A stretch of DNA of 56,042 nt from Actinomycetota bacterium (GCA_009886115.1 VFJJ01000063.1:1-56042), one strand, 5' to 3'; positions 5,782 to 23,613 are shown, numbered from the stretch's first letter. Made by a program: numbers and translations. Notes: generated by a model from the letters alone, not told the origin.

Positions 5782-5814
5782 GTTCACCCCAAGTTGTCGT
5801 AGGTGTCATGGCCG
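5782..5814 (+). promoter_or_regulatory. Putative PHO-box-like 11-bp direct repeats upstream of the pstS-like gene
   Basis: GTTCACCCCAA / GTTGTCGTAGG / TGTCATGGCCG in 11-bp register; resembles the Streptomyces PhoP repeat unit G(G/T)TCAYYY. Confidence 0.4.
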
Positions 5815-5872
5815 TCCCTTAGAACTGGTGGTGCGGAGATTCCGCAACATCCACCGATTTGGGGAGGGTACT

Positions 5873-7153
5873 TTGAAGCGAAGCAGGAAAGTCCTGATGC
5901 TCATGAGCCTGGGAGCGATTGCAGCTACTGCGATCATTCCCAGTGCTGGGGCGCTCCCGCCGCCCGGCAGTCCCGGATTGAACCCCGGCCTGAACGACGT
6001 CGTCGACAAGATCCAGGGTTACGGCTCCGACACCACCTACCCGCTGATGCAGCAGCTCGACGCGGCGTTCAACGGATCGCTGGGCTGCAACCAGGCTGCT
6101 CCGACGTCACCGTACGCCGGCGAGATCCAGAACACCTGTCTCCCGTTCGCGGCGCAGCCCCCGGGCGTGGTCCTGAACGAGAACTGGGACCACGACGCGG
6201 CGATCAGCTACTTCCCGCAAGGCTCGTCGGCTGGTCGCCGTCAGCTCTGCGAGCAGGACGTACCTCGGCCCGGCGGCATCGCGATCACCGACTACGCCCG
6301 TTCGTCGAGCGCCCCGAGCACGACGCCGACGTGTGGCGGCGCAGCCGGCCCGCACACGTTCCGCTTCGTGGCCTTCGCCCGTGACGCTCTCACCTGGGTG
6401 AAGTTCAACACGGTGGGTGGCGGCAGCACCCCTGTGACCAACCTCACGACGGTGCAGCTCAACGAGATCTTCGTGAACTGCGACCTCGAGGTCGGCGATG
6501 CCTTCCCCACGACATACTGGGACGAGGGAACCATCGGCGGCGCGAACCACAACCCGATCCGGGTGTGGAGCGTCCAGAGCGCCTCAGGCACCAGGGCCAC
6601 CTGGGACGGGTTCGTCGGCGGCAACAGCACGCTGTGCATCCCGGCCATCTACAAGGACGGGCTCCCGGCCAACGGCGAGCGCGTGATCCAGGAGCACAAC
6701 GCGGCACCGGTCGTCAGTGCCGTCAACGACGCTGACGCAGCCGACGAGGGCAACTCGATCTTCTACTACGGGTTCGGTCGCTACCAGGTGACCGGTGGAG
6801 AAGGCTCGATCCTCGGAAGCGTCAACGGCATCGCCCCGACCGAAGCCACCATCCAGAACGCGACCTTCCCCTTCGGTCGCTTCGTCTACAACGTGTACCG
6901 CCAGGCCGGCACCGGTCCGACGCTCGCTCCGTACGCGAACGGCTACATCGGATCGTCGGGTTGGATCTGCAAGCCTCCGGGCCAGCACGCCGAGCCCCCG
7001 GGCACGCCCGGCGTCGGCATCGAGGTCGGTGCTGCGCCGGTCGACTACGGCCAGCTGGTCCACGATGTCATCCGCTCGCAGGGCTTCATCCCCCTGCGGA
7101 CCGACATCCAGAACGTGAACCGTTGCGACTTCACCGACGTCGTGTACCCCTGA
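5873..7153 (+). CDS. Secreted PstS-like phosphate-binding (PBP) protein
   Basis: GGGGAGG RBS before TTG 5873; signal peptide; GSDTT, GSSAGR, ARSSS, FARDAL, SGTRATW and FPFGRFVYNV motifs; several Cys. Confidence 0.8.
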   Translation: MKRSRKVLMLMSLGAIAATAIIPSAGALPPPGSPGLNPGLNDVVDKIQGYGSDTTYPLMQQLDAAFNGSLGCNQAAPTSPYAGEIQNTCLPFAAQPPGVVLNENWDHDAAISYFPQGSSAGRRQLCEQDVPRPGGIAITDYARSSSAPSTTPTCGGAAGPHTFRFVAFARDALTWVKFNTVGGGSTPVTNLTTVQLNEIFVNCDLEVGDAFPTTYWDEGTIGGANHNPIRVWSVQSASGTRATWDGFVGGNSTLCIPAIYKDGLPANGERVIQEHNAAPVVSAVNDADAADEGNSIFYYGFGRYQVTGGEGSILGSVNGIAPTEATIQNATFPFGRFVYNVYRQAGTGPTLAPYANGYIGSSGWICKPPGQHAEPPGTPGVGIEVGAAPVDYGQLVHDVIRSQGFIPLRTDIQNVNRCDFTDVVYP

Positions 7154-7226
7154 TCTGAGCTCGCCCACAGTCAGATCAAGCACCGGTCCGCACCGGTGAC
7201 AAGTATTGCGTAACTCATCGATTGCA

Positions 7227-7262
7227 GCAGCCGGGGTTCGGCACATGCCGAGCCCCGGTTGC
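7227..7262 (+). terminator. Strong stem-loop after the pstS-like gene
   Basis: GCAGCCGGGGTTCGGC-ACAT-GCCGAGCCCCGGTTGC. Confidence 0.65.
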
Positions 7263-7339
7263 CGCGCGTTGACACCAAAGACTGTTCACGTAGATCGCCA
7301 GTCAGCGGGTAGAGGAGGTGAGCAAGCGAGCTCCGACTG

Positions 7340-9055
7340 ATGTATACCGAGAGTTCGCATCAACGTCGTCTTCTGGCAAATCTCTCATTCCTTCGAGCGG
7401 TCAAACTCAACTCCGTGGACGCCACGGCACAGCACCCTCGTTCGTTTCCCGTATCCGAGCGTCATCTGGATGATGCTCCTTCGAGCGGCTCGGGCGGTCA
7501 CCGGCGCAGAACGCTGGACGCTCGGCTCGTCGGTCGGAACCTGACCCGGCTCGCGCTCGACATCGTCGGCGCCTCCGTCGGCGCTCTCGTCGCACGTGAT
7601 GCGGTGGGATCGGCGGTGTCGGTGGCCGAGCCCGAGCCGTGGTGGATCGCCGCCGCCGTGGTCCTGTTCGTCGGCGCCCGGTTCGCGACCGGCGCGTATC
7701 ACCGGGTGTGGACCGAGTCGCCGGGCGAGCTGATCGCCGTCTGGAAGGCCTGCGCCGCCGGGCTGGCCGCGGCCCTCGCCCTCGCCTTCGTCGCCGACTC
7801 CGACATGCCCGATCGCTGGGCGAGTGCGGCCGCCTTCACGACGGGCACCTTTGTGATGGCCCTGACGCTCCTCGAGCGCCGGACGGTGCGGTGGTTGCGC
7901 CTCCGGGGACGGATGCGCTGCCGGCTCCTGCTCGTCGGGGCGGGTGGCGACGTCGAACCGATGATCGAGATGCTGGCCGAGCATCCGGAGTGCGGCATCG
8001 ACGTCGTCGGCATCGCCGGACCCGGTGTGTCCGACCGGGCCGATCTGCTGGTGCCCTGGTTCTCGCCCCGAGCCGGTGCCGGAACCCGCCCGACGAACAG
8101 CGGGGCCGCCGACGCGCTCTCGGATGTGCCGGAGCTCGATGTCGACGGCATCTTGCTGCTGCCGGCGTCGGTGGGTGCCCCGACGGCGAACGCCTGTGCT
8201 CGAGCGGTGCGCCGCGTCGGCGGGGCGGTGCTCGTGGCCGGCCCGGTTCGGGGCGCGACCGCTTCATGCCTGCGACCGTCGACCGTGGCCCGCGAGCCGC
8301 TGTGGGACTATCGCGACGCCAGGCTCGGACCGGCGCAGCGCTTCGTCAAGCGCACCCTCGACCTGGGTCTGGGTCTCGTGCTCAGCCTCGTCGCCCTTCC
8401 CGTCATGGGGATCGTCTCGGTGGCGATCATGGTACGAGACGGTCGCCCGATCTTCTTCCGCCAGGTGAGGGTCGGGCGCGACGGCGAGCCGTTCACCATG
8501 TTCAAGTTCCGCACGATGGTGCCCGACGCCGAGCACCGGGTCATCGACCTCCGCTGCGCCAACGAGCGCACCGGACCCCTGTTCAAGCTCACCGACGACC
8601 CCCGGGTCACGCGTGTCGGGCGCTTTCTTCGGACCACCAGCCTCGATGAGCTCCCGCAGCTCATCAACGTGCTGGGCGGCGCGATGAGCCTGGTCGGGCC
8701 CCGTCCCGCCCTCCCGGCCGAGGTCGCCACCTTCGACGAGGCGCTGCTCGATCGGCACCGTGTGAAGCCCGGCATCACCGGGTTGTGGCAGGTCGAGTCA
8801 CGCGACTCCCCGTCGTTCGCCGCCTATCGCCGCCTCGACCTGCACTACGTCGAGAACTGGTCGGTGGGTCTCGACCTGGAGCTGATCGCTCGGACCATCG
8901 GGTCCGTGGCGACGCGAGGGCTCACGCTCGGGCGCGGGTCGAAGGTCGCTGAAGCGCCGCCGCCGTTCAGGGTCCTCGCTGAGGCTCCGGTACAGGTCAA
9001 CGACGGGTTCGTCGGGTTCACAACAGAGCGAGAGGAGCGCCCGTGCGCATCGTGA
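7340..9055 (+). CDS. Polyprenyl-phosphate sugar phosphotransferase (WcaJ/WbaP-like priming transferase); start uncertain
   Basis: Four N-terminal TMs; VKRTLDL, FFRQVRVGRDG.PFTMFKFRTM, DPRVTRVGRFLR.TSLDELPQLINVL.G.MSLVGPRP, VKPGITGLWQV, LDLHYVENWS. Confidence 0.92.
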   Translation: MYTESSHQRRLLANLSFLRAVKLNSVDATAQHPRSFPVSERHLDDAPSSGSGGHRRRTLDARLVGRNLTRLALDIVGASVGALVARDAVGSAVSVAEPEPWWIAAAVVLFVGARFATGAYHRVWTESPGELIAVWKACAAGLAAALALAFVADSDMPDRWASAAAFTTGTFVMALTLLERRTVRWLRLRGRMRCRLLLVGAGGDVEPMIEMLAEHPECGIDVVGIAGPGVSDRADLLVPWFSPRAGAGTRPTNSGAADALSDVPELDVDGILLLPASVGAPTANACARAVRRVGGAVLVAGPVRGATASCLRPSTVAREPLWDYRDARLGPAQRFVKRTLDLGLGLVLSLVALPVMGIVSVAIMVRDGRPIFFRQVRVGRDGEPFTMFKFRTMVPDAEHRVIDLRCANERTGPLFKLTDDPRVTRVGRFLRTTSLDELPQLINVLGGAMSLVGPRPALPAEVATFDEALLDRHRVKPGITGLWQVESRDSPSFAAYRRLDLHYVENWSVGLDLELIARTIGSVATRGLTLGRGSKVAEAPPPFRVLAEAPVQVNDGFVGFTTEREERPCAS

Positions 9056-10329
9056 TGATCGGCCAGCGGGGCGTGCCGGCCACCCATGGCGGCGTCGAGC
9101 ACCACGTGGAGGAGATCGGCAGCCGCCTCGCCGACCGCGGCCACGACGTGACGGTGTTCTGCCGGACGAACTACGTCGAAGAGGGCCGCCGGCGGCATCG
9201 CGGGATGCGCATCGTGCGGGTACCCACGATCGGTACCAAGCACCTCGACGCCATCGTGCACAGCGGTCTCTCGACCGTCGCCGGTGCGCTCGCCCGGGCC
9301 GACATCTACCACTTCCACGCGCTCGGCCCCGGCCTGTTCACCCCGGTCCCCCGGCTGCTCGGGCGGGCCAAGGTGATCCAGACGATCCACGGCCTCGACC
9401 ACGAGCGCTCGAAATGGGGTGGCCTGGCTCAGCAGGTGCTCAAGACCGGCGCCGAGTTCTCGTATCGCGTGCCCCATGCCGTGGTTGCGGTCTCGCGAGC
9501 CCTCGCCGCGCACTACCGGGCGAACTCGTCGGTGCCGATCGCCTACGTGCCCAACGGCGCTCCGAGCCCGCGGCACCGGCCGCCGGGACCGGTGCTGGCC
9601 GAGCTGGGTCTCGAAGCGGGACGGTACGCGCTCTTCGTCGGGCGGCTGGTGCCCGAGAAGGCCCCCGATGCGCTGGTGCAGGCCTTCGCCCGACTCGAGA
9701 CCGACCAGAAGCTCGTGATCGTCGGGGGGAGCTCCTTCACCGACGGGTACGTGGAGTCGCTCGAACGGATGGCCGCGGCCGACCCCCGTTGCGTGATGGC
9801 CGGATGGCGTTTCGGTGAGGACCTCGACGAGCTGTACTCCAACGCCGGGCTGTTCGTGCTGCCCTCGCTGCTCGAAGGTCTGCCGCTCACGTTGCTCGAG
9901 GCCGCGTCGTTCGGGCTGCCGATCATCGCCAGCTCGATCCCCCCGCACGTCGAGGTCCTCAGGCATGCCGGCCCCGGGCGTCGTCTGGTCGAGCCCGGCG
10001 ACGTCGACGCGCTCGCGGCCGAGATCACCCAGGCGATGGCCGACCCCCGGGCCGAACGACTCGGCGCGACGGAGCTCCGGGCCGAGGTGTGCGAGCACTA
10101 CGACTGGGACCTCGTCACCGACGCCACCGAGGATCTCTACCAGCGGGTGATCGAGGGGCGGCCGCTGGGTCGGCCGGGCACGCTCTACGACAACGTGGTG
10201 CTGCGCCGACGACCCGAGACCATCGAGCTCGTCCAGCGGATCGGCGTGCCTGTCGGTGCGACGCCGATCCGGTGGTCACCCGCGTCGCCGGATCGCGATC
10301 ATCCCGCCGCGGCGAGCGCAGTGGCGTAG
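9043..10329 (+). CDS. GT4 glycosyltransferase
   Basis: MRIVMIGQRGVPA.HGGVE, FVGRLVPEK, LPSLLEGLPLTLLEAAS; GAGGAG RBS. Confidence 0.92.
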   Translation: MRIVMIGQRGVPATHGGVEHHVEEIGSRLADRGHDVTVFCRTNYVEEGRRRHRGMRIVRVPTIGTKHLDAIVHSGLSTVAGALARADIYHFHALGPGLFTPVPRLLGRAKVIQTIHGLDHERSKWGGLAQQVLKTGAEFSYRVPHAVVAVSRALAAHYRANSSVPIAYVPNGAPSPRHRPPGPVLAELGLEAGRYALFVGRLVPEKAPDALVQAFARLETDQKLVIVGGSSFTDGYVESLERMAAADPRCVMAGWRFGEDLDELYSNAGLFVLPSLLEGLPLTLLEAASFGLPIIASSIPPHVEVLRHAGPGRRLVEPGDVDALAAEITQAMADPRAERLGATELRAEVCEHYDWDLVTDATEDLYQRVIEGRPLGRPGTLYDNVVLRRRPETIELVQRIGVPVGATPIRWSPASPDRDHPAAASAVA

Positions 10330-11567
10330 ATGCCGTCGAGCTCGTCGAGGTGGCGGTCACGGGCGAAGCGTCCGACCGCCACCGCTCGGGCTCGCGCACC
10401 CATGCCTCGGGCGCGCTCGGGATCCTCGAGCAGCATCGTGATGGCTCGGGCCAGTTCCTCGGGGTCGTTCGGCGGAACGAGCAGCCCGGTCGAGCCGTCC
10501 TCGACGAGGTCGGGAAGCCCTCCCAGCGTCGTGGCGATCACGGGTACGCCACAGGCGAACGCCTCGAGGACGATGATCGGCTGGTTCTCGTGCCACACGG
10601 ACGGGACCGCCACGGCCCTCGCCGATCGGATGAGGGCGTGGACCGCTGCTCGATCGAGTCGACCACGCCAGCTCACCCGTCCCGGCGCGATCCGCGCGGC
10701 CCGTTCCTCGAGCTCGGCCCGCAACGGCCCGTCACCGGCGATCACGAGACGCGCTTCGGGTCCAGCCTGGGCGATGGCGTCGATGAGGACGCCGACCCCC
10801 TTCTCGCTGGCGATCCGCCCGGCGAAGACGATCGGGCCATCGTCGGGTGTGCTCGGTCGGATGATCCCGGCCCGGAGGCCGATGTCGGTGTCGGTGTCGA
10901 TGTCGATGTCGACGAAGTGGTCGAGCACCTTGATCCGCTCGGCGGCGAAGCCGGCCGCCAGCATCCGCTCGGCCAGGAAACGACTCGGACAGATGAGGGT
11001 CGAGGCGTGACCGTACGCGCCGAGCGCCCGGTGCACCGTCGACTCAACCGCCAGCGTGAGGCTCGCGCCAAGCGATCCGTCCTTGCAGCGCATGGTGATC
11101 GCGTGGCGGAACGAGCTGCCGACGCAGCGCTCACAGATCGATCCGCCCGCGAGCAGCTGGTACGAGGGGCAGATCAGCTTGTAGTCGTGGAGGGTCATCA
11201 CGGTGGGGACTCCCGCTCGCCGGAGCGCCCACAGCACCGACGGTGAGAGCTGGTGGTACACGTTGTGGAGATGGGCGACGTCAGGTCGGAAGCGATCGAC
11301 GACAGCCCCGATGCCGTCGCTCGACGACTTCGACCACAGCATCCGTCCCGTCGCCCGGGCCTTGCCGATCGCCGAGCGCGGCGCCGGTTCGAGCTCGATG
11401 TGATCGGGGAACCAGGAGTCGTACTCGAACGGCGGGTTTTCGGGATGGTCCATCCCGAAGAACGCGATGTCATGGCCCCGGCTCGCCTGAGCATGGGCGA
11501 CGTCGAGCATGTACGCCTCGGCGCCGCCTTTTCGGTAGAGGAACTTGTTGACGTGGAGGATCCTCAT
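10299..11567 (-). CDS. GT4 glycosyltransferase (true start inside the long 10299..15275 ORF)
   Basis: MRILHVNKFLYRKGGAE, HLHNVYHQLSPS, TLHDYKLICP, GRIASEKG, PSVWHENQPIIVLEA. Its 3' end overlaps the convergent GT4 by 31 bp. Confidence 0.92.
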   Translation of the reverse strand: MRILHVNKFLYRKGGAEAYMLDVAHAQASRGHDIAFFGMDHPENPPFEYDSWFPDHIELEPAPRSAIGKARATGRMLWSKSSSDGIGAVVDRFRPDVAHLHNVYHQLSPSVLWALRRAGVPTVMTLHDYKLICPSYQLLAGGSICERCVGSSFRHAITMRCKDGSLGASLTLAVESTVHRALGAYGHASTLICPSRFLAERMLAAGFAAERIKVLDHFVDIDIDTDTDIGLRAGIIRPSTPDDGPIVFAGRIASEKGVGVLIDAIAQAGPEARLVIAGDGPLRAELEERAARIAPGRVSWRGRLDRAAVHALIRSARAVAVPSVWHENQPIIVLEAFACGVPVIATTLGGLPDLVEDGSTGLLVPPNDPEELARAITMLLEDPERARGMGARARAVAVGRFARDRHLDELDGIYATALAAAG

Positions 11568-11602
11568 GGCGCGGCGGCTCCGCTGGGCTGGGAAGGACGG
11601 GC

Positions 11603-14389
11603 TCACGACGCGACGGCCTCGAGGTCGATGGTTCGCCCGTGCGCGTCGCCTTCGAGGTCTTGGAGGTCGATGACCCCGGGGCCGGCGACGGGGGCTCGGG
11701 TGGCCTCGTCGGGCGGCGGCGTCAGAGCTGATCGTGGGACGAGCGCGTTGGCACAACAGGCGAACGCGGCGAGATACCAGACCACCGCAACCTGCGACAC
11801 CACGTTGGCCGCGATCGACAGCGTCACGAACGCCGTGATGCAGCCGGCGAACGCGACGACCACGGCCCGGTCGAACGCTCGCGCCGTTCGTGTGGCCCGC
11901 AGGGCCTCGCGAGCGCCGCGAACCAGGCTGTTCATGAACCACAGGTAGCCGAACAGCCCCACGACGCCGGTCTCGACGAAGATCCGGAGGAAGTCGTTGT
12001 GCGGTGCCTTGCCGGTCACGAGCTCCTCGGCCGTGGTGTCGAGGCCGATCCCCGTCACCGGGTTGGCGTCGGCGAGCTCGAGGACGTCGCCCCAGTACTC
12101 GAAGCGCCAGACCAAAGAGTTCCCTGCGGTGCCCGAGAGGTTGCGGGTGTCCTCGAGCTCGGTGAAGCGCGCCACCGTCGACGGCACCAGCAGCGCGATG
12201 GCGATGACGCTTCCGACCAGCACCACGAGCAGACCCCGAGAACGCCGCAGGACGGCCACCACCACGATCCCGAGGAACGTGGCGATCCAAGCGCCGCGGG
12301 CATAGGAGCTCACCAGCCCCACGGCACAGGCCGCGGTGGCCGCCACCAACGCAACACGGGCGACACCCCGCACCACCGGGGCCAGCGCGATCCCGGCGAT
12401 GACGAGAAACGCGAGATACATGGCGTACGGGTTGGGGTGCAAGAAGGTGCCCCGGACCCGGTCGATCGTGTCGATCTCGACCCGGCCCCGCCTTGTCACC
12501 TGCTGATGGATGCCGACGAGGACGGGGATGAAGGCAGAGACGTAGACGGCGACCAGGACCCGTGAGACACGCCGTCGATCGGCGAGGAGACGGTCGCAGG
12601 CCGCGAACATCATGACGATGGTGAGGATGCGCAGCGCTTCGACGGCGCTCGTCGACGGGTTCACCGAGCCGAGCACGCTCACCGACGATGCGGCCACGAA
12701 CGCCACCGCCCCCTTGGTCACCGGCCCGTACCGGTGTGGGTGGCCCATGGTCTGCACGGTGAGCCAGAGCAGGGTCGCGAGGATGAGCGCGAAGCCCGTC
12801 ACCGAGGCCGGGTCGAGCTGGCCGCTGCGCTGCGAGCCGATGATGTCGAGGCTGGCCCGGACCGCGAGCGCCCCGAGCACCACCACCTCGAAGCGCACGA
12901 GGGTCACCGCCACGGCCGCCGCGGCGAGGGCGCCGAGCGCCACGCCGAGCACCACGGTCGATGACGCCCGTCCGAGCCCGTAGCCGGCCCCGGCGGTGAC
13001 GAGCGCGGCGATCACGAGCGCGCCGGTGAGCATCCCCGAGCCCGCCACCGGTGGCCTCGGAGAGGGAGCGAACGTCGGACCGCCATCCACGCCCGGATCG
13101 ACTGCGGCTCCAGCGGGCACCCGTCCGCGCGTCGCCGTCGCTGTCGCTGGCGCGGTCGCCGGATGCTCCGCCAGGGCCCGGTCGAGCTGGCGCCAGAACA
13201 GCCCGGCGCCGATGGCGTTGGCCAAGGCCAGCCCCGTGAGGGCGCCCGTCGAGCCGGCGACGGCGGCTCCGACCACCCCGCCGACCACGGTGAGGGGCAC
13301 GATCGAGATGCGGGCCCGGAACGATCGTTGCGACTCGGCGGTGGCCCGCAAGCCCACCAGGGCCCCCGATGTGGCGCCGATGCCGGCCATGAGCGCGGCC
13401 TGCGGCACCAGGACGGGCTGGGCTTCGCGCCAGCTCGCACCGAGCAGCTCGACGCCGATCGAGTCGGGGATGACCATGGCCCCGAGCCCGCACGCGAAGG
13501 CCACCAGGGCCAACGATGCCGAGAGCCGGACGGCGTAGGGACGGAGCGCGTCGGGGTCGCGGTGCCAGATCCGGACCGCCTCGGGCGTGGCCACGAGGTT
13601 GGCCCCCAGCAACAGCACCTGGAGCGGGCCGAACAGCACCTGCGCGGCGCGGATCGCTCCCAGGGCCGAGAGCCCTCCCGTGATGCCGACCGCGGTGATC
13701 GCCAGCTGGCGAGCCCCGGCCCGGGCCACGAACTCCCCGCTGTAGTGCCGTCCCAGGTCCCACGTCGAGCGCAACCACGTCGCCGCCCTGGCGGGAGCGG
13801 GCCTGATGCCCGACTGGACGATTCCGGCCACCGCCGCGACCGATGCCGCTGCACCCCAGGCGGCCGTGAACCAGAACACCGTCCGGTGCCCCGATGCGAT
13901 CACGAGCGCTACGGAGCCGCCCTGGGCCGCGGCCCAGATGGCGTCGTTGGCCACGGCCCGAGCGGGACGGCCCTGGGCGAGGAACACTTCGCGCCAGGTG
14001 TCTTGGACCAGGAGGCCCGGGAGGCTCAGCCCGAGAGCGAGCAGGGCCGCGCCGGCGTTGCCGGCGACAATCCCGCCGACGACCGCGAACGGGCCGCCCA
14101 CGACGATGCCCAGCACGAGTGCGTACCCCGTCGCCTCGGCGATGGGCCGGTCGGCGCTGCCACCCCAGCCCAGGGTGGCGCTGAAGCGGACGATCAGGGG
14201 CTCGCCCGAGGTGGCCCGGGCCAGTCCCAGCACGAGCGTGTAGGCGAGAAACGCCAGTCCGAAGGCCCCGAAGCCGTCGGCGTCGAGCTGGCGGGCCACC
14301 AGCACGGCCAGCGCGAAGTTCGTGAGGCTCGAGAGGCACTGGTCGAGGATCGTCCATGCGCCCCGCCGCGTCGCCGGGGCCGGGCTCAC
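11603..14389 (-). CDS. Fused Wzx-like flippase + Wzy/WaaL-like (Wzy_C) polymerase/ligase, 928 aa
   Basis: GTGA-coupled start. N-half: LDQCLSSLTNFALAVLVARQL...FGAF plus many TMs. C-half: RVRGTFLHPN, SYARGAWI, SLVWRFEYW, PVTGIG, APHNDFLRIFVETGVVG. Confidence 0.8.
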   Translation of the reverse strand: MSPAPATRRGAWTILDQCLSSLTNFALAVLVARQLDADGFGAFGLAFLAYTLVLGLARATSGEPLIVRFSATLGWGGSADRPIAEATGYALVLGIVVGGPFAVVGGIVAGNAGAALLALGLSLPGLLVQDTWREVFLAQGRPARAVANDAIWAAAQGGSVALVIASGHRTVFWFTAAWGAAASVAAVAGIVQSGIRPAPARAATWLRSTWDLGRHYSGEFVARAGARQLAITAVGITGGLSALGAIRAAQVLFGPLQVLLLGANLVATPEAVRIWHRDPDALRPYAVRLSASLALVAFACGLGAMVIPDSIGVELLGASWREAQPVLVPQAALMAGIGATSGALVGLRATAESQRSFRARISIVPLTVVGGVVGAAVAGSTGALTGLALANAIGAGLFWRQLDRALAEHPATAPATATATRGRVPAGAAVDPGVDGGPTFAPSPRPPVAGSGMLTGALVIAALVTAGAGYGLGRASSTVVLGVALGALAAAAVAVTLVRFEVVVLGALAVRASLDIIGSQRSGQLDPASVTGFALILATLLWLTVQTMGHPHRYGPVTKGAVAFVAASSVSVLGSVNPSTSAVEALRILTIVMMFAACDRLLADRRRVSRVLVAVYVSAFIPVLVGIHQQVTRRGRVEIDTIDRVRGTFLHPNPYAMYLAFLVIAGIALAPVVRGVARVALVAATAACAVGLVSSYARGAWIATFLGIVVVAVLRRSRGLLVVLVGSVIAIALLVPSTVARFTELEDTRNLSGTAGNSLVWRFEYWGDVLELADANPVTGIGLDTTAEELVTGKAPHNDFLRIFVETGVVGLFGYLWFMNSLVRGAREALRATRTARAFDRAVVVAFAGCITAFVTLSIAANVVSQVAVVWYLAAFACCANALVPRSALTPPPDEATRAPVAGPGVIDLQDLEGDAHGRTIDLEAVAS

Positions 14390-16319: not shown

Positions 16320-16458
16320 GACACCGCTCGCACGTCGCTCAACCTGGTCAACGTGGTCTTTCTTACGTTGGTCATGGCCCCCTGCGCTGGCCTCAGGCGC
16401 CGCTGCACGGCACGAACGTAGCCACAGACGCCGGGCCGGAGGCACTCGGTGCTCAGAC

Positions 16459-16524
16459 GTTCATGGAGCATCCAGCTGGTGTTCGGGCGTTGTTCATGCA
16501 ACGGTTCAGCGCCCTTCCTATCGT
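16459..16524 (+). promoter_or_regulatory. PHO-box-like 11-bp repeat array in the divergent promoter of the polysaccharide cluster
   Basis: GTTCAT at 16459, GTTCGG at 16481 and GTTCAT at 16492 are in 11-bp register; GTTCAG at 16504 is one base off. Confidence 0.4.
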
Positions 16525-16550
16525 CGAATGGTCCCGCATCAGGAGGTGTC

Positions 16551-18104
16551 GTGGAGATCTGGAGCCTGGTGCGCCGCAGACCGATGGTGGTCGCGCTGGC
16601 CCTCGTGCTCGCCCTGGTCGGGGGAGCAGCGGCATACCTGAGCGCCTCGTCGCGCCCGGAGTCGGTGCGCATCAGCGTCACCGTCCCCGTCCCCGGCGCC
16701 GAGGCCCAGACCTTGGGCAGCGTGGCCCAGGCCGTGGCCAGCTTCCAAGCCACCGTCACCTCCCCGCTGGTGATCCCCGGCGTCGTGACCGACACCGGCG
16801 TGCCGCAGGAGCGGTTGCAACGGGGCCTCTCCACCCGTCAGATCGGCGGGGCCGCGATCGTGCAGATCTCGTGGACGTCGCTGTCGGACGAGTCCGATCC
16901 GGCGATTCTCGAGTCGGTGAGTCGTCGGGCGCTCGAGTCGGCCTTCGCTCCGCAGCTGCGCATCGCGCGCAACGAGCTCGAGATGGCCGCCACCCGGGCG
17001 TTGGCGGCCACGGACGCGTTGAACGAGTTGTTCGACGAGACGGCCGTCGACCTGCCTCGGCAGGAGTACGAGGCCGCGGTGGCAGACGCAGCAGCACTGC
17101 GGGCGCTCATCGAGCGGACCGAGGTGAGCGGCGAGGGCGCGGTCATCGGTCTCGACGGCTCGACCGTCGACTACCTCGAGCCCATGCGGAACCGCTTGAT
17201 CGAGGCCCAGGCGCGAGTCGACGAGCTGGCTCCGATCCTGGCCCGCCATGAGGAGCTGTTCGACGATCGTGACTCGGCTGCTGCGGTGGCCGACGAGCGC
17301 CAGGCGGTCGTCGACGACCTCGAGGCGCGGCTCGATGCCGCGCAGGCTCAGGTCACCTCGGTCACCGCGCCGGTCGCGGTCTCGAACCGGGGCTTCCTCG
17401 TGATGCGCAGCGTCGGTGGCGCGCTCATCGGTCTGGCGTTCGGGGCCGTGGTGTTCGTGTCGTCAGGTCGGCGCCGTCGCCCGACGCCGGTGCTCATGAC
17501 CGATTCGACGGGTGTGGTCGACGACGCGGCGGCGGAGGAAGGACCTGCCGGGCTCGAACCGGCCAACGAGTCCGCTCCCGCTGGTCGGGATCTCAGGACG
17601 GTCGTGTTCCTGCCGACGCCGCCCCTGCCCGAGCTGGTGCCCGTGGTCGCCCTCGACGAAGACGACCGTCCGCTCCCCATGGTCATCGACCTCACGACCC
17701 ATCGCGTGTCGGCGACCGCGCAATGGGCCACCGACGGGGCCAACGGCACTGCTCGGAGGACCACGAACGGCACGAACGGCACCAACGGCACGAACGGCAC
17801 GAACGGCACCTACGGCACGAACGGTGCGGCTCACCGGGCCACGAACGGCACGAACGGTGCGGCTCACCGGGCCACCAACGGCACGAACGGTGCGGCTCAC
17901 CGGGCCACCAACGGCTCCCAGGGGTTCACAGCTGCTGACGGACCGCGTCCTGGTGACGCCGTGCCGGCGGCCGGTTCCGCATCCCGCCCCGCCGCCGAGC
18001 GGCCCGGCGACGTCGCCGATCTCGACGACGAGACGCAGGCGCTGGCCAACCTGGTCGCCTCCCTGGTGCGCCGCAGCGGAGGACCCCCCGATGGGCGCGA
18101 CTGA
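16551..18104 (+). CDS. Wzz/polysaccharide co-polymerase-like protein with low-complexity C-tail
   Basis: AGGAGG RBS before GTG 16551; WSLVRRR + TM1, coiled-coil region, TM2, then a disordered tail; lies within the cluster. Confidence 0.65.
   Translation: MEIWSLVRRRPMVVALALVLALVGGAAAYLSASSRPESVRISVTVPVPGAEAQTLGSVAQAVASFQATVTSPLVIPGVVTDTGVPQERLQRGLSTRQIGGAAIVQISWTSLSDESDPAILESVSRRALESAFAPQLRIARNELEMAATRALAATDALNELFDETAVDLPRQEYEAAVADAAALRALIERTEVSGEGAVIGLDGSTVDYLEPMRNRLIEAQARVDELAPILARHEELFDDRDSAAAVADERQAVVDDLEARLDAAQAQVTSVTAPVAVSNRGFLVMRSVGGALIGLAFGAVVFVSSGRRRRPTPVLMTDSTGVVDDAAAEEGPAGLEPANESAPAGRDLRTVVFLPTPPLPELVPVVALDEDDRPLPMVIDLTTHRVSATAQWATDGANGTARRTTNGTNGTNGTNGTNGTYGTNGAAHRATNGTNGAAHRATNGTNGAAHRATNGSQGFTAADGPRPGDAVPAAGSASRPAAERPGDVADLDDETQALANLVASLVRRSGGPPDGRD
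17740..17915 (+). repeat. Coding repeats: (ACGAACGGC)n encoding TNG, and a 36-bp unit encoding NGTNGAAHRAT x3
   Basis: Directly visible. Confidence 0.9.
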
Positions 18105-20037
18105 CGTCGAGTCCAACCAGGGGCGCGATCTCGCTCACGGATCGTCGCCCAGCGCGATGGTTCGACCCTCGGTGGCATCGGCGAAGCCGGCTCCGGGCCC
18201 CCTGCAGGGCAACACCACCGTGGTGGCGATCGTCGGTGCCGGCCGCAGCGGCAGCACGCTGCTCGGTGCCCTGCTGGGTCAGAGCCCCGGCGTGTTCAAC
18301 GCCGGCGAGGTTCGCTACCTCTGGGACCGGGGCTTCGTCGAGCGGCGCCTGTGCGGCTGCGGCGAACCCGTTCCCCGATGTCCCGTCTGGTCGAGCGTGG
18401 CTGAGCAGGTCGGGACGCCCGTGCTGGAACGGATGCGCGATCTCCAGCGTCGGTACGGCCGGATCCGGCACGTTCCGATCGCGCTGGCTGGGCAGATGCT
18501 GCCGTCGATCATCGAACGGCGTGTCGGACAGGATCTCGAAGCTCTCGGTGCCCTGTACACGAGCATCGCCGCCGCCTCGGGCGCTCGGGTCATCGTCGAC
18601 TCCTCCAAGCTCCCGCTGTACACGCAGAGCCTCCGGCATGCTCCCGGCATCGACGTCAAGGTCCTCCATCTGGTCCGAGACTCACGAGCGACGGCGTTCT
18701 CGTGGCAACGCAAGAAGGCACTGACCGACGGCGCCCCCCGGGAGTTCAAGGAGACGATGTCGCCGGTGCGCAGTGCTGCGTTGTGGACGATCTGGAATTC
18801 GTTGTGCGACGGATTGTTCGCTACGGGGCCCGACTTCCGGCGCGTGCGCTACGAAGACCTCGTCGAGCATCCGTGGGCGACCCTGGCAGCGCTGCACCGC
18901 TGGATCGGGGTCCCGATGGATGACAGGATCTTCGTGGGCCAGCACCGGGTCGTACTCGGGGCAACGCACACCGTCGCCGGCAACGCCGACAGGATGCGGA
19001 CGGGCACCGTGGCGATACGCCCCGACGACGAATGGCGTCACGCCCAGACCGACGAGGTTCGCCGCACGGTCACCGCCATCAGCTGGCCGATGCTGGTTCG
19101 TCACGGCTATCCGATCCTCGACCCGATCGGGCGGACCTCGCTACACCTGCGCTTCCTGCGGATGCGCGGGCTCCCGGCGTTTCTCGAGGAGAAGCGCTTG
19201 AGTCCGCGTGCGTTGGCGTCGGGAACGGTCGTGGGTCTGCGCCGACGCGCCGAGCGCGGCGAGCCGGGGTCGACCGTTCCGCTGTGGCTCGTCGGTGCGC
19301 AACGCTCGGGCACGAACATGCTCGTCAACGCGTTCCGCTGCGCGCCCGAGGTCGAGGTGCGCAACGAGACCGACCGGGCCCTGTTCCGAGACTACGAGCT
19401 GCGAACGGACCGGGTGGCTGCCGCGGTGTCGGCATGTCGCAGCCCGGTGATGCTGGTCAAGGCGCTGTGCGACTCGCATCGCGCCCGATGGATGCTCGAT
19501 CTGCCCGGCACGACCCGGGTGCCCCGCATGATGTGGATGTTCCGCGGTGTCGATGCCCGAGCCCAATCGGCCGTCACCCGCTTCGGCCACGCCAACCAGT
19601 ACGCGCTCCGAGCGATCGTGTCCGGGAACGGCGATCATCTCTGGCAGGCCGGTGGCTTGTCGAGTGCCAATCGGCTGCTGCTCGAGCAGGTCGATGCCGA
19701 GCACCTCGACCCGCTCTCGGCGTCGGCGTTGTTCTGGTACCTGCGCAACAGCTTGTACTTCGAGCTCGGGATCGATCAGCGTACCGACGTCGTGGTCGTG
19801 TCGTACCAGCGCCTCGTCGAAGACCCGATCGGTGAGTTGGCATGGATCACCCGATTCGCCGGCATTCCCCTCCGGCCTTCGATGGCTCGCCATGTCGAGC
19901 GAGGTCGGGGCGGCGACACCGGCCCGGCAGTGATCGCGCCTCGTATCCGCGAGCTCTGCGAAGCGATGGATGCCCGGTTGACGGCGGTCTCCGCCCACCA
20001 TCGACGTCTGCACCTGCAGCCAACCATCGTGGCCTGA
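18091..20037 (+). CDS. Two-domain sulfotransferase
   Basis: GGAGG RBS. Domain 1: GAGRSGST, CGCG..CPVW, IVDSSK, HLVRDSRATAFS, VRYEDLV. Domain 2: LVGAQRSGTNML, FRGVDARAQS, VSYQRLVEDP. Confidence 0.85.
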   Translation: MGATDVESNQGRDLAHGSSPSAMVRPSVASAKPAPGPLQGNTTVVAIVGAGRSGSTLLGALLGQSPGVFNAGEVRYLWDRGFVERRLCGCGEPVPRCPVWSSVAEQVGTPVLERMRDLQRRYGRIRHVPIALAGQMLPSIIERRVGQDLEALGALYTSIAAASGARVIVDSSKLPLYTQSLRHAPGIDVKVLHLVRDSRATAFSWQRKKALTDGAPREFKETMSPVRSAALWTIWNSLCDGLFATGPDFRRVRYEDLVEHPWATLAALHRWIGVPMDDRIFVGQHRVVLGATHTVAGNADRMRTGTVAIRPDDEWRHAQTDEVRRTVTAISWPMLVRHGYPILDPIGRTSLHLRFLRMRGLPAFLEEKRLSPRALASGTVVGLRRRAERGEPGSTVPLWLVGAQRSGTNMLVNAFRCAPEVEVRNETDRALFRDYELRTDRVAAAVSACRSPVMLVKALCDSHRARWMLDLPGTTRVPRMMWMFRGVDARAQSAVTRFGHANQYALRAIVSGNGDHLWQAGGLSSANRLLLEQVDAEHLDPLSASALFWYLRNSLYFELGIDQRTDVVVVSYQRLVEDPIGELAWITRFAGIPLRPSMARHVERGRGGDTGPAVIAPRIRELCEAMDARLTAVSAHHRRLHLQPTIVA

Positions 20038-20066
20038 CCCCTGACCCCTGACCCCTGACCCCTGAC
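20033..20066 (+). repeat. 7-bp tandem repeat (CCTGACC) about 5 copies between convergent genes
   Basis: Directly visible, starting at the stop codon of the sulfotransferase. Confidence 0.9.
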
Positions 20067-20120
20067 GCGGCGGCGCTGGCGACCCAACAGGCACCCGCGC
20101 CCCTACCGGGTTCGCGGCGG

Positions 20121-21839
20121 TCAGGCCGAGCTGGTCCCGTCGAGGTCGACCGGACCGACGGGAGACGTGACTCGACGAGCCGGTTGGAGCTGCCAGGTCG
20201 ACGCGTCCACCAGCTCGGTGCCGAGAGCGCCGATCGCTCGGCCCGTCCCGGCCGAATCGAGCAGCCACACCGCCGTGGTGTTGGCGGCCACCTGGACCGA
20301 GACCGTCGTCCGCAGCGCCCGGCACCACAGCGCCGTCCGATCGGGATCGGCGAGTTGCGTCGACCGGGCGGCCAGTCGGGCATCGCCGAAGGGGATCCAC
20401 CGACCCCGATCGGTGAGGACCGAGTAGCCCCGACCCGAAAGGGTCGAGCTGATCCCCACCGGCCGCTCGGTGGTCACGACACCGAACGGGCTCACCTCGG
20501 CGTTCAGCGGGACGTCGCCCAGATGCGGGGCCGCCCCGACCGCCTCGACCCGCCCGTCGGAACGGAGCAGCCAATACCCCGGCCCATCGGCCATGGACGC
20601 GATGTCGAGGTAGCTCGCCGCCTCCGGCTGACCGGCCGCGACACCGACGAGCAAGGCGCTCGCTCGCCACACGCCTTCCGTGACAGCGCTGCCGCGGGCC
20701 ACGACGGAGCCGTCGGCGAGCAGGACCCACAGGCCCAGGCCGTCCGACGTCGACGCGGCGCCCACGATGGGGTCCGAGAGCTCCCGGATCGACAGGCGGT
20801 TCAGGCTGGGCGCGTCGCCGTGCGCGACGATCACACCGAGATCGTCGATCTCCCACGAGCCGGCCCGGCGCCGGGCGGGGGCAAAGGCTGCCAACGTCGT
20901 CGCCCGTTGCCAGGGCCTGACCGTCCAGGCGCCGTCGATCGAGTCGACCGGGGCGTCCTCGACCGGGCACAGGACCTGCTCGGGCGCGGAACGGTCGGCG
21001 GCGACGAGGCTGGGGTGGGGGTCGACGGCGATCCCGTCGGGGTCGCGGATCTCGAAGTGCAGGTGGGGTACGGCCATCTCGGCGTTCCCGCTGTCGCCGA
21101 GGAACCCGATGGGCTCCCCGGCCTCGACGGCGACCCCGGCCTCGATACCCGGCCGGATCTGCAGGTCGGCCGGTCCGTCGTCGTCGTCGGTTCCGGGATG
21201 ATCGTTGTTGAGGTGGAGGTAGACGTACCGGTAGCCGTCGGCGTCCTCGATGACGATCCCGCCACCGGCCGTCTCGGTCGGGCGCGACTGCGCCGTGATC
21301 GCAGACACGATGGTCCCGTCCACGGCGGCGACGACCGTCTGGAGCTTGGAGCCCACGATGTCGTTTCCAGCGTGGGTGTGCCCGTCACGGGGGTCACCGA
21401 AGTCGGGCTGGAACGAGGTCGCTCCGGCCACCGGGAACTGGATTCTCCTGAGCACCGGCGGAGGTACGGGTACCTCCGGAGGCACGGGTACCTCCGGAGG
21501 CGCGATCTCCTCGGACGGCTCGGCCGCGAGCACCTCGGCCGCGGGCGGCTGCGGCTCGGACGCCGGGCCAGGGTCGCCGGGATTCGTGGAGGGCAGCGGG
21601 CCGGTGCCAACGCTGGCGATGCTGGAAACGGTGGTGACCACGGTGGCGACCGGTGCCGAGTGATCCGTCGGCTGGTCGGTGCCCCCCACATCGGCCTGGG
21701 CTGCTGACGCGAACGCGACGGCGACGATCGAGGAGATTGCTGCCCATCGGACCCGGGGAGACAGACGCACGCAGGGAACCGTAGGGGCCAACATGCGGTG
21801 GAACTCGTCACCGGGCGTGAGTGTTCGGCCAGTGCTCAC
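20121..21839 (-). CDS. Secreted M23 metallopeptidase with degenerate C-terminal YWL repeats (start may be 21794)
   Basis: HAGNDI (HxxxD), VVAAVDG, YVYLHLN, IGFLGDSGNA, PHLHFEIR; GYWLLRSDGRV..VGAAPHLG repeats. Confidence 0.85.
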   Translation of the reverse strand: MSTGRTLTPGDEFHRMLAPTVPCVRLSPRVRWAAISSIVAVAFASAAQADVGGTDQPTDHSAPVATVVTTVSSIASVGTGPLPSTNPGDPGPASEPQPPAAEVLAAEPSEEIAPPEVPVPPEVPVPPPVLRRIQFPVAGATSFQPDFGDPRDGHTHAGNDIVGSKLQTVVAAVDGTIVSAITAQSRPTETAGGGIVIEDADGYRYVYLHLNNDHPGTDDDDGPADLQIRPGIEAGVAVEAGEPIGFLGDSGNAEMAVPHLHFEIRDPDGIAVDPHPSLVAADRSAPEQVLCPVEDAPVDSIDGAWTVRPWQRATTLAAFAPARRRAGSWEIDDLGVIVAHGDAPSLNRLSIRELSDPIVGAASTSDGLGLWVLLADGSVVARGSAVTEGVWRASALLVGVAAGQPEAASYLDIASMADGPGYWLLRSDGRVEAVGAAPHLGDVPLNAEVSPFGVVTTERPVGISSTLSGRGYSVLTDRGRWIPFGDARLAARSTQLADPDRTALWCRALRTTVSVQVAANTTAVWLLDSAGTGRAIGALGTELVDASTWQLQPARRVTSPVGPVDLDGTSSA

Positions 21840-21919
21840 GCCGAGTTTCCCGTCCCGCTACCCAGCGGTCGGTGACGCTGAAACGGGAGCCCGCTGGTGG
21901 GGACGAGGCGGAACGTACC

Positions 21920-21952
21920 CTTCGCGCACACTTCACGCGTTGGCCAGCTTGG
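21920..21952 (+). promoter_or_regulatory. Possible PHO-box-like repeats upstream of phoX
   Basis: CTTCGCGCACA / CTTCACGCGTT / GGCCAGCTTGG in 11-bp register. Confidence 0.35.
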
Positions 21953-22044
21953 CGCCGCCGTGTCGTTCCTGACGCTTCGTAGGTTCGGGGTTGCGGTGCG
22001 GTGTGCGCCGCTTCTCGCAGAGCTCGTTGCCAGGAGGCATACCC

Positions 22045-23613
22045 ATGAAGCACCCCAAGTTCAGCCGACGCTGGCTGGCGGTGACCGTCGCAGCCGCCGC
22101 AGCCACCGGCATGATCGCCAGCCCGGCGATCGCTGCTCCGCCGAACACCGGACCCACGACCAACGTCGATCCGTACATCCTGGGGGTCGGGCCCGGCGTG
22201 GCGACCACGTCGCTGCTCACCGTCAACGATCTGCCCGCGGGCAACGGCTACAGGATGGTCGGCATCCCCGATGGGCTCGGCGCCTTCCTCAACAGCAACG
22301 GGCGCGTCGTCGTCCAGATGAACCACGAGCTCCAAGCGACAGCGGGCATCGCTCGCCGCCACGGCAAGATCGGCTCGTTCGTCTCCCGCGTGGTGCTCAA
22401 CCCGGCCAACCTGGCGATCACGAGCGGCAAGGACCTCATCTCGCCCGACATCAAGTACTGGGACTACGCGGCCGGGGCCTACACCTCGACCGTCCCCGCT
22501 GGTCAGATCGCCGAGTTCGGCCGCTTCTGCTCGTCGTCGCTGACCGACCCCGGCCAGCTCTTCAACGCTGCCACGGGCAACGGCACCCGGACACAGATCT
22601 ACTTCGCCAACGAGGAGACCGGGAACGAAGGACGGGTCTTCGGCGTGCTCCCCAACGGCGTGACCCGGGCCTTGCCCCGCCTCGGCCTGTTCTCGTGGGA
22701 GAACACCATCGCAGCTCCCAACCAGTCCGACACCACGTTGGTGATGGGACAAGAAGACGGCGGCGTCGCCGAGCTGTGGGCCTACGTCGGCCGCAAGAAG
22801 GGCACCGGCAGCGAGTTCTTCAAGGCCGGTCTCACCAACGGCGTCAACTACACCGTCAAGCTCCCGAGTGGCCAGGTGACCGACGCCGCGTTCCGCGCCG
22901 CGTACAACGCCGGCGACGCCGTTCCGTTCGTGCTGACCCACAACGAATGGAACCAGACCGGAGCGGCGCAGAACGCCGAAGCCGTCGCCGACGGCGCGCT
23001 CGCCCTCAACCGCATCGAAGACGGCGCGTTCGATCCCAACAACAAGAACGACTTCTACTTCGTCACCACCTCAGGTGGCGAAGGCACCGGCACCGGTGGC
23101 GGTGGCGGTCTGTGGAAGCTGAGCTGGACCAACATCGAGCAGCCGCTGCTCGGCGGCACGCTCACGCTGATCCTCGACGGCACCCAGACCTTCACGACGG
23201 CGACCGGCACCACCACCATCGACTCGCCCGACAACCTGGAGATCGACTCCTCCGGCAACATCCTCATCCAGGAGGACCCGGGCAACAACGTCACCCTGGC
23301 CGAGATCCTCGCCTACCGGATCTCCGACGGGGCTCGCGCTGCACTCGCCCGCTTCGACGCCAACCGCTTCCTCATCGGTGGCTCGTCGTACATGGGGACC
23401 CAGGACGAGGAGTCGAGCGGGATCATCGACGTCGAGGACATCATGCCGCGGGCCGGCAAGGACGGCGTGTTCCTCTTCGATGCCCAGATCCACACGTCGA
23501 CCGGCCTCCCGGCCGGCACCGGTCCGGGCACCGTCCAGGAGCTCGTCGAGAACGGCCAGCTGCTCCTGCTCGAGGTCGACGACTGGGCCGCGGTGTACGC
23601 CGCCGGCGTGTGA
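22045..23613 (+). CDS. phoX: PhoX/DUF839-family secreted alkaline phosphatase
   Basis: AGGAGG RBS; SRR twin-arginine-like signal; metal-ligand motifs NHE, RFCS, NEE, WEN, GQED, RIEDG, PDNL, IQED and ESSG in PhoX order. Confidence 0.75.
   Translation: MKHPKFSRRWLAVTVAAAAATGMIASPAIAAPPNTGPTTNVDPYILGVGPGVATTSLLTVNDLPAGNGYRMVGIPDGLGAFLNSNGRVVVQMNHELQATAGIARRHGKIGSFVSRVVLNPANLAITSGKDLISPDIKYWDYAAGAYTSTVPAGQIAEFGRFCSSSLTDPGQLFNAATGNGTRTQIYFANEETGNEGRVFGVLPNGVTRALPRLGLFSWENTIAAPNQSDTTLVMGQEDGGVAELWAYVGRKKGTGSEFFKAGLTNGVNYTVKLPSGQVTDAAFRAAYNAGDAVPFVLTHNEWNQTGAAQNAEAVADGALALNRIEDGAFDPNNKNDFYFVTTSGGEGTGTGGGGGLWKLSWTNIEQPLLGGTLTLILDGTQTFTTATGTTTIDSPDNLEIDSSGNILIQEDPGNNVTLAEILAYRISDGARAALARFDANRFLIGGSSYMGTQDEESSGIIDVEDIMPRAGKDGVFLFDAQIHTSTGLPAGTGPGTVQELVENGQLLLLEVDDWAAVYAAGV

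Follow-up and report, generated by a model that had tools for sequence, protein, structure and literature searches.

In Bacillus subtilis, phosphate-rich teichoic acid is swapped for phosphate-free teichuronic acid under Pho control (the tua operon and PhoP-PhoR); teichuronic acid is a uronic acid polymer that is not sulfated, and PhoP there recognizes a repeat different from the one discussed below. In Streptomyces coelicolor, PhoP activates SCO4873-SCO4881 and SCO6021-SCO6025, presumed clusters for phosphate-free wall or extracellular polymers with divergent promoters (PMC3479208). Here we describe a 56,042-nucleotide (nt) stretch of DNA (the window), which is contig C127 of G000 (5.4 Mb, 224 contigs, about 70% G+C), the genome assembly of an uncultured actinobacterium from habitats of the freshwater-sediment type. 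It carries a polysaccharide cluster with four sulfotransferase domains, flanked by a gene for a secreted PBP-fold protein and by a gene of the PhoX (DUF839) family. From GTTCA- and CTTCA-type units phased at 11 nt in three promoters (at 5782, 16459-16524, and 21920) and a single GTTCAC in a fourth (7284), all of which we found at these coordinates, a sequence-only reading had proposed one Pho-regulated island producing a sulfated surface polymer in place of phosphate-containing ones. Our analysis slightly favors (with a probability of about 0.55) a different view, in which the region is three separate things and not one co-regulated island: the polysaccharide cluster, the PhoX-family gene, and an orphan PBP-fold gene. 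Of these, the PhoX-family gene is probably a member of the Pho regulon.

The PHO box bound by S. coelicolor PhoP is built of 11-nt repeats whose core reads GTTCAY. Binding takes two or more units in succession, with a conserved core; poor extension units and gaps of 1 to 2 nt are tolerated in complex operators, and DNA with several potential units but no core is not bound; binding was restored by consensus bases, A to T at position 2 and, in another promoter, CC to GT at positions 1 and 2 (PMC2275107). PhoP and GlnR share targets in this organism (PMC3561978, PMC2691820). As for sulfotransferase-bearing exopolysaccharide clusters, the synechan (xss) cluster of Synechocystis PCC 6803 has been characterized (PMC8205485), and wps-1 of Actinoplanes missouriensis is a proposed cluster with two sulfotransferases, for which sulfation is unproven (PMC13390465). 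According to the latter paper, from 2026, cyanobacteria are the only bacteria for which sulfated polysaccharides have been reported; it names actinomycetes as a possible further case.

The Pho operator of the lineage

A search with the PstS of G000 against 40 relatives gave 22 matches, spread over 18 of the 41 genomes (G000 counted), and 18 upstream regions were inspected. Fourteen of them, none from G000, have coding-strand pairs of GTTCA-type units and were aligned; not included were L016, which has one unit, and L027 and L028, in which none was seen. The Pho operator of the lineage is GTTCAC-N5-GTTCAC, a direct repeat at 11 nt of the same GTTCAY type as in S. coelicolor PHO boxes, which bears out the actinobacterial repeat invoked by the sequence-only reading. 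It differs from those PHO boxes, by sequence comparison alone, in its fixed distance from the -10 region: in 12 of the 14 aligned promoters a CCnTAnnnT element resembling a -10 box follows at exactly 38 nt from the start of the proximal unit. The G000 pstS promoter fits this layout (GTACACCAAAC GTTCAGGAACA, then TACGGT at +38). A by-product of the alignment is thus a usable Pho operator and promoter layout for a poorly studied order.

Two models were derived, with G000 absent from both training sets: a two-unit matrix built on the pstS sites of 11 relatives, and an architecture model built on 12 promoters, which adds the score of the -10 element to those of units at -38, -49, and -60, the last of them floored at zero. 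Chance levels are given by 3000 dinucleotide shuffles per intergenic region, and genome-wide ranks refer to 10,863,266 positions. These matrices replaced the counting of exact word pairs, given that GTTCA-N6-GTTCA pairs show no preference for 11-nt spacing in G000 (4 intergenic pairs, against 0 to 7 at neighboring spacings).

The phosphate locus of G000 lies on C144 and comprises phoU, ppk, CHAD, NUDIX, ppx, pstS, and pstC; a second pst system, in which PstS and Calx-beta form a fusion, lies at the end of C173 and the start of C195. Among the best intergenic matches of the two-unit matrix are the pstS-pstC spacer (21.8), the phoU promoter (20.4), and pstS (14.9), and at bona fide G000 sites the score ranges from 14.9 to 21.8, with both units at 7.5 or above. 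The best two-unit match in G000 (24.7; C173:4843-4876, minus strand) precedes a gene for a Calx-beta/GHL15 protein of 1500 amino acids (aa) that adjoins the second pst system. The architecture model ranks pstC first (29.2), followed by pstS (25.9), a position on C108 (22.1), the C173 Calx-beta/GHL15 gene (22.1), and C44:38739 (21.8). Its matches at 10.9 to 14.3 include those of a type I phosphodiesterase, GlpD, TatA, and an iPGM-like enzyme, together with those of an amine oxidase, a thiolase-like protein, a MarR regulator, and an amidohydrolase.

The C44 site, a strong PHO-type match (C44:38717-38785), lies in the promoter of a response regulator gene (C44:38778-39497) whose product has RegX3 as its best PDB relative (2OQR; 260.8 bits, E 9.3e-77, versus 194.3 bits for MtrA). 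On these grounds the RegX3-like protein is a candidate autoregulated Pho regulator. While it resembles RegX3 of the SenX3-RegX3 system of Mycobacterium tuberculosis, no histidine kinase gene adjoins it; a PhoR-like kinase on C92 pairs with a different regulator. The genome holds eight strong OmpR-family matches, none of which reached the equivalog cut-off in NCBIfam naming.

A degenerate PHO box in the promoter of the PhoX-family gene

Structure prediction (predicted local distance difference test score, pLDDT, 87.6) places the product of this gene in the PhoX family, and a phosphatase role is predicted. The top fold matches are Pseudomonas fluorescens PhoX structures, 4A9V (E 4.8e-14) and 3ZWU, with the next-best fold at E 7.7e-07; a PDB sequence search returned nothing relevant. 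The window protein shares with P. fluorescens PhoX the fold (template modeling score 0.61) and the Pfam family (PF05787, covering profile positions 208 to 451 of 515), and its N-terminus carries SRRWL, a twin-arginine-like signal. It differs in being about 60 residues shorter and only 13% identical. The PhoX-like family to which it belongs, of about 520 aa and more than 3254 homologues, is named DUF839 or PhoX by annotation pipelines, and its alignment shows many invariant Asp, Glu, and Asn residues and one invariant Cys (C162).

The promoter reads CTTCACGCGTT GGCCAGCTTGG ... TCGTAGGTT. Its units, CTTCGC (21920), CTTCAC (21931), and GGCCAG (21942), score -1.2, 4.6, and -2.6, and the -10 element that follows, with the hexamer TAGGTT, scores 9.3. 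The architecture score at 21942 is 11.3, a value equaled or exceeded at 38 positions of the genome and by none of the 3000 shuffles, and equally good units precede just 4 of the 1573 intergenic -10-like elements.

The position of the site is conserved. A metagenome scan for PhoX-like relatives gave 80 loci, of which the 66 with at least 260 nt of upstream sequence were used (L102, L104, L109, L135, L137, L141, L142, L148, L151, L153, L155, L159, L173, and L174 were dropped). A two-unit match of at least 10 is present on the coding strand at 21 of the 66 loci, on the reverse strand at 4, and in the in-gene control at 0; at a threshold of 14 the corresponding counts are 9, 0, and 0, and an architecture score of at least 11 is reached on the coding strand at 12 loci and in the control at 0. 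Merging six pairs with identical sites leaves 60 loci, of which 18 reach 10. The layout of the window promoter is common to the aligned promoters of L115, L160, L150, L111, L162, and L120, as in L115 (CTTCACGCGCC GGCCACATCCG ... TCCTAGCGT) and L160 (GTTCACCGGCC GGCCACGTTCC), and CTTCAC recurs at the same place in the promoters of relatives. The orthologue in G146 has a promoter score of 15.7; in wider sampling, orthologues were found in 2 of 300 genomes of the class and 1 of 400 of the phylum. From these comparisons we conclude that the PhoX-like family is commonly under the putative control of a regulator that also controls pstS, with the window site as a degenerate member of the set. The site that the sequence-only reading had placed here is therefore upheld as a degenerate PHO box, the PhoX-family gene of the window probably belongs to the Pho regulon, and the promoters of its relatives provide evidence that the widespread 520-aa DUF839/PhoX subfamily may be a regular member of that regulon.

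In the mechanism we propose, the two or three 11-nt repeats of the PhoX-like promoter (at -60, -49, and -38 from the -10 hexamer) would be bound head to tail by a RegX3/PhoP-type regulator, which would bring RNA polymerase to the -10 element lying 38 nt further on, just as it would at pstS. Low phosphate would then switch on the PhoX-family gene and possibly also the genes behind it, which encode very large secreted proteins (NHL-repeat, Calx-beta/GHL15, and GSDH/Ig). Because no stable hairpin follows the PhoX-like gene (z = 0.93), its co-transcription with these genes is possible.

The array in the divergent promoter of the polysaccharide cluster

The divergent promoter contains the units GTTCAT (16459), ATCCAG (16470), GTTCGG (16481), GTTCAT (16492), GTTCAG (16504), and CTTCCT (16515), in strict 11-nt phase from 16459 to 16492, followed by one 12-nt step to 16504 and then by the unit at 16515. 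The first four score 7.7, 0.2, 2.1, and 7.3, and the two-unit scores are 10.3 at 16459 and 2.8 at 16481, the better of which is reached by 93 of 3000 shuffles. The architecture score at 16481 is 16.9, with 6 positions of the genome at least as good, and the -10 element TCCTATCGT is nearly the same as that of pstC (GCCTATCGT). Of 3000 shuffles, none reaches this architecture score under model A and 11 do so under model B; the array ranks second when the floor is removed, and, given an equally good -10 element (8638 positions), units as good are found at 2 positions under model A or 10 under model B, 3 of the latter intergenic. Units 16492 and 16504 would overlie the stretch that separates the operator from the -10 element. 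For the minus strand the best score in the region is -11.5, and no model match serves the sulfotransferase/Wzy operon; a DNA search of the region against G000 found no repeat copies. Summed-unit scoring without the -10 term, in which the array ranks from about 16 to about 104 among intergenic positions depending on the number of units and the slack allowed, was set aside, since it showed no preference for phosphate genes.

By its statistics the plus-strand array stands out, yet as a candidate operator it is weak in biochemical terms. The phased units reported here by the sequence-only reading hold up on the plus strand, which fits the pst layout; an adjacent strong pair is missing and the minus strand has nothing to offer. 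Tentatively, the plus-strand promoter of the operon for the PCP-like protein and the double sulfotransferase could be a low-affinity cooperative PhoP site. If the array is real, phosphate limitation would be expected to change chain length or sulfation and not to turn on the pathway as a whole. We regard as doubtful the fuller proposal that a RegX3/PhoP protein binds cooperatively to a five-unit array (16459-16515), such that low phosphate would induce the co-polymerase-like protein, the double sulfotransferase, and PhoX, and the cell would scavenge phosphate under a coat of more heavily sulfated, phosphate-free anionic polymer, in a sulfate-for-phosphate counterpart of the teichuronic acid switch. 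If true, such a link would mean that the PhoP-driven change to phosphate-free wall polymers (PMC3479208) also takes in sulfate chemistry, and it would join the economies of phosphorus and sulfur at the cell surface.

Several points weigh against reading Pho control into these two promoters. The training promoters were picked by eye (14 of 18), with a possible bias toward finding what was sought, and the form of the architecture model was fixed after the window sites were known, a further possible source of bias; its third-ranked position, on C108, lies in a coding region and is a false positive. At the PhoX-like promoter the two-unit score is only 4.1 (21920), reached by 704 of 3000 shuffles, and the -10 element supplies 9.3 of the 11.3 of the architecture score. 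The array has no core, that is, no two adjacent strong units, and without the -60 unit it drops to rank 77, a sign of model dependence. By analogy with the rules established in S. coelicolor, an array without a core is suspect, as are CTTC units, which have C at position 1. Indeed, none of the four window promoters has two consecutive well-conserved units, a difference from the S. coelicolor PHO boxes. The comparison with background that the sequence-only reading had called for gives a divided answer: with the -10 spacing included, the scores of the divergent and PhoX-like promoters are reached by at most 11 of 3000 shuffles, and with the two-unit matrix by 93 and 704, while the sites at 5782 and 7284 do not rise above background (see below).

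It is quite conceivable, at somewhat less than even odds, that the GTTCA words of the array have come together by chance and play no part in regulation. The word GTTCA is found roughly once per kilobase on each strand, and the 30 same-strand clusters of at least three GTTCA within 60 nt found genome-wide adjoin, where annotated, unrelated genes (toxin-antitoxin, short-chain dehydrogenase, and amidohydrolase). Under strict phasing, 231 positions (48 of them intergenic) score as high as the array, which itself contains one phase slip. Its best adjacent pair, at 10.3, is one of 482 positions in the genome with a two-unit score above 10, and the window holds four of these, where five are expected. 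Chance accounts less well for an array phased to a pstC-like -10 element at the pst spacing, for the shuffle counts of the two architecture models, and for a rank between 2 and 77 of 10.86 million under three model forms.

That the array is instead the operator of another OmpR-family regulator (GlnR-type, MtrA-type, or cluster-specific) is unlikely. No regulator gene was found within or adjoining the cluster in family scans, and the spacing from the array to the -10 element copies that of the pst promoters, a layout that the glnII site misfits (-10 term, -3.7). Nevertheless, the pstS-trained two-unit matrix also matches the glnA/glnII spacer (17.3; C73:28234-28255) and the amtB promoter (16.6; C134:12485-12506), beside which lies a GlnR-type regulator with a GlnR N-terminal domain, and because of these matches the two-unit matrix alone cannot separate PhoP from GlnR-type sites, a further point against the Pho assignments above. 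Nitrogen and phosphate regulators appear, from their promoters, to read near-identical repeats in this lineage, and in S. coelicolor some targets are common to PhoP and GlnR. The earlier caution that other OmpR-family regulators bind similar repeats stands; G000 itself has eight strong OmpR-family matches. In addition, three Micromonosporaceae-type sulfotransferase loci (including Rugosimonospora) share a different four-unit array in strict 11-nt phase, TTTGAG/GTTCAC/TTTCAG/TTTGAG, in a GT2/sulfotransferase divergent promoter (L080:7750-7800, L088:7170-7220, and L093:400-450), and an OmpR-type protein of some kind may therefore control clusters of this sort more than once.

The PBP-fold gene and the priming transferase promoter

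Under the reading that we favor, in which the region is three separate things, the PBP-fold gene would have its own terminator and no operator. Its upstream units, GTTCACC (5782), GTTGTCG (5793), and TGTCATG (5804), score 9.8, -20.9, and -1.5; the two-unit score of 6.0 is reached by 642 of 3000 shuffles, and the site fails in the architecture model (-12.3). The gene had been called pstS-like and placed behind a Pho site. The likeness to pstS is not supported: the protein scores 42.1 bits against the NCBIfam PstS family TIGR02136 (cut-off, 206.6), its BLASTP match to the G000 PstS has an E value of 0.003 over 46 aa, and no permease or ATPase genes (pstCAB) adjoin it. A PDB sequence search with the protein returned nothing relevant. 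Homologues occur in 2 of 300 genomes of the class, downstream of a gene for a membrane-anchored protein, and neither has a site scoring at least 8 just upstream; conservation in relatives, which had been proposed as a check, is thus seen for the PhoX-like promoter (21 of 66) and not for this one. The hairpin behind the gene, whose fold is matched by none of 200 shuffles of 7154-7290, is a probable terminator separating the gene from the cluster. The single GTTCAC at 7284, also put forward as a site, precedes the priming transferase, and 1677 of 3000 shuffles do as well.

Two further comparisons bear on Pho control of the cluster. Relatives of the first sulfotransferase domain, collected as 27 loci (351 kb), have PHO-type matches at chance frequency: 6 matrix scores of at least 13 and 4 architecture scores of at least 11, where about 8 and about 3 are expected at G000 rates. 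Upstream of cysD-cysNC, which supply 3'-phosphoadenosine 5'-phosphosulfate (PAPS), G000 has a two-unit match of 14.9 in a short divergent region (C169:74731-74752, minus strand; GTTCACTCAAC GTCCACCGGGA). This match was dropped as support, since 0 of 29 relatives, including the same-genus genome, reach 10 on the coding strand (30 cysD promoters).

The S. coelicolor clusters SCO4873-SCO4881 and SCO6021-SCO6025, with divergent promoters bound by PhoP, follow the same logic as the sulfate-for-phosphate proposal; PhoP binding there was seen by chromatin immunoprecipitation on microarrays (ChIP-chip) and the text consulted describes no sulfotransferases, as opposed to a weak sequence resemblance at one promoter of the cluster described here. 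Even with this precedent of PhoP-activated clusters for phosphate-free polymers, two of four promoters unusually high in the architecture model, and the cysD-cysNC match in G000 itself, it is decidedly unlikely that the region is one Pho island in which PhoP co-induces the PBP-like gene, the whole cluster, and PhoX and a sulfated polymer replaces phosphate-containing wall polymers, given chance-level sites at the PBP-like and priming transferase promoters, a sulfotransferase/Wzy/GT operon without a site, the hairpin that parts the PBP-like gene from the cluster, and the results for cysD and the 27 loci.

The sulfotransferase-bearing polysaccharide cluster

Genes were called from third-position G+C content (GC3) and then checked by Pfam and NCBIfam family scans (Table 1). 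The gene content described by the sequence-only reading was confirmed: the cluster (7340-20037), lying between the PBP-fold and PhoX-family genes, is organized as three operons and encodes four sulfotransferase domains, a priming transferase, a Wzy-type protein, and three GT4-family enzymes. With a priming transferase, glycosyltransferases (GTs), and a Wzy domain all present, it qualifies as a Wzy-dependent cluster. The minus-strand operon runs from 16319 to 10299 and consists of four genes with 4-nt overlaps (sulfotransferase 1, sulfotransferase 2, the Wzy_C protein, and a GT4 enzyme), and the start of sulfotransferase 1 is backed by a fall in GC3 upstream of it (0.60 versus 0.83). The Wzy_C protein has about 17 hydrophobic segments, its N-terminal half being a polytopic region of 500 aa with no family assigned. 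In the 517-aa protein, two membrane segments (at residues 5 and 282) flank a helical region, followed by a disordered tail; it matched no Pfam or NCBIfam family and is PCP-like by topology only. Family scans found no Polysacc_synt/Wzx match among the cluster proteins.

All four sulfotransferase domains exceed the Pfam cut-offs (27 for Sulfotransfer_3 and 22 for Sulfotransfer_1) and keep the 5'-phosphosulfate-binding loop GxxR[SC]G[ST]. Because these loops are kept and G000 also has an adenosine 5'-phosphosulfate (APS) kinase domain (C169:71876-72328) and 11 Sulfotransfer_3 matches genome-wide, the cluster most likely makes a sulfated Wzy-dependent extracellular or wall polysaccharide from PAPS. 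By their descriptions, xss and wps-1 are likewise Wzx/Wzy-type clusters with embedded sulfotransferases, wps-1 being an actinomycete precedent. The window cluster differs from them in having four sulfotransferase domains, a Wzy domain located in a large membrane protein, and no recognizable Wzx.

The sulfotransferase-bearing cluster is real and species-specific. Neither the 40 related genomes nor the GTDB species genomes nor the JGI metagenomes yielded a relative of the 517-aa protein, and the same-genus genome G001 lacks the cluster: 39 of its 42 DNA matches fall in the multi-copy gene for a 322-aa protein, and beyond that gene family it shares generic transferase similarity only. Among the 27 sulfotransferase loci, one from an Acidimicrobiales metagenome-assembled genome has five sulfotransferases, a Wzx-type flippase, and a GT4 enzyme, and a Nostocoides locus has a priming transferase and three sulfotransferases. 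Together with the window, these suggest that multi-sulfotransferase clusters are scattered through the Actinomycetota.

Table 1. Genes and sequence elements of the window
Feature	Position	Strand	Remarks
Sortase/PASTA protein	2996-4663	+	
322-aa repeat protein	4725-5693	+	Multi-copy family
GTTCACC unit and two degenerate phased units	5782-5814	+	Upstream of PBP-like gene
Secreted PBP-fold protein ("pstS-like")	5873-7153	+	Alternative start 5897; Pfam PBP_like_2, 51.7 bits
Perfect 16-bp hairpin, probable terminator	7227-7262	+	Fold z-score, -5.01
Priming polyprenyl glycosylphosphotransferase	7340-9055	+	Bac_transf, 212 bits; TIGR03025, 332.5 bits (cut-off, 295.55)
GT4-family glycosyltransferase	9043-10329	+	Glycos_transf_1 and Glyco_trans_4 matches
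GT4-family glycosyltransferase, last in minus-strand operon	10299-11606	-	Glycos_transf_1, 125.7 bits; start from frame analysis
928-aa polytopic membrane protein with Wzy_C (O-antigen polymerase/ligase) domain	11603-14389	-	Wzy_C, 73.4 bits
Sulfotransferase 2	14386-15426	-	Sulfotransfer_3, 83.4 bits; GTGRCGST loop
Sulfotransferase 1, first in minus-strand operon	15423-16319	-	Sulfotransfer_3, 85.2 bits; GAPRSGTS loop
Divergent promoter region, 231 bp	16320-16550		
GTTCA-type unit array and -10-like TATCGT	16459-16525	+	TATCGT at 16519-16524
517-aa PCP/Wzz-like protein	16551-18104	+	Topology only
Double sulfotransferase	18091-20037	+	Sulfotransfer_3, 79.2 bits; Sulfotransfer_1, 33.9 bits; GAGRSGST and GAQRSGTN loops
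Peptidase M23 protein, divergent from PhoX-like gene	20121-21794	-	Peptidase_M23, 52.9 bits
Degenerate PHO box of PhoX-like promoter and TAGGTT	21920-21985	+	TAGGTT at 21980-21985
PhoX-family (DUF839) secreted beta-propeller	22045-23613	+	Pfam PhoX, 45.8 bits (cut-off, 24)
2222-aa protein, at least 9 NHL repeats forming several propellers	23709-30377	+	Directly behind PhoX-like gene
Calx-beta/GHL15 protein	31867-35259		Downstream of PhoX-like gene; paralogue of C173 Calx-beta/GHL15 gene

A scan for consensus sigma-70 promoters and T-tailed terminators is uninformative at 70% G+C: the 1 promoter-like site and 3 terminator-like sites that it gave are no more than shuffled sequence yields. The 322-aa secreted protein encoded near the PBP-fold gene consists of five or six GYWLVGADGGIFAFGDAxFxGS repeats without a confident Pfam family, and the 39 DNA matches of its gene in G001 point to a large paralogous family in the genus. 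Four tandem copies of CCCCTGA (20037-20066) lie immediately 3' of the stop codon of the double sulfotransferase gene. Elsewhere in G000, five strictly 11-nt-phased units (GTTCAG, GATCGC, GTTCGC, GTTCGT, and GTTCGT; C134:5832-5886, minus strand) are located between genes for an ADP-forming acyl-CoA synthetase and a choice-of-anchor I secreted protein.

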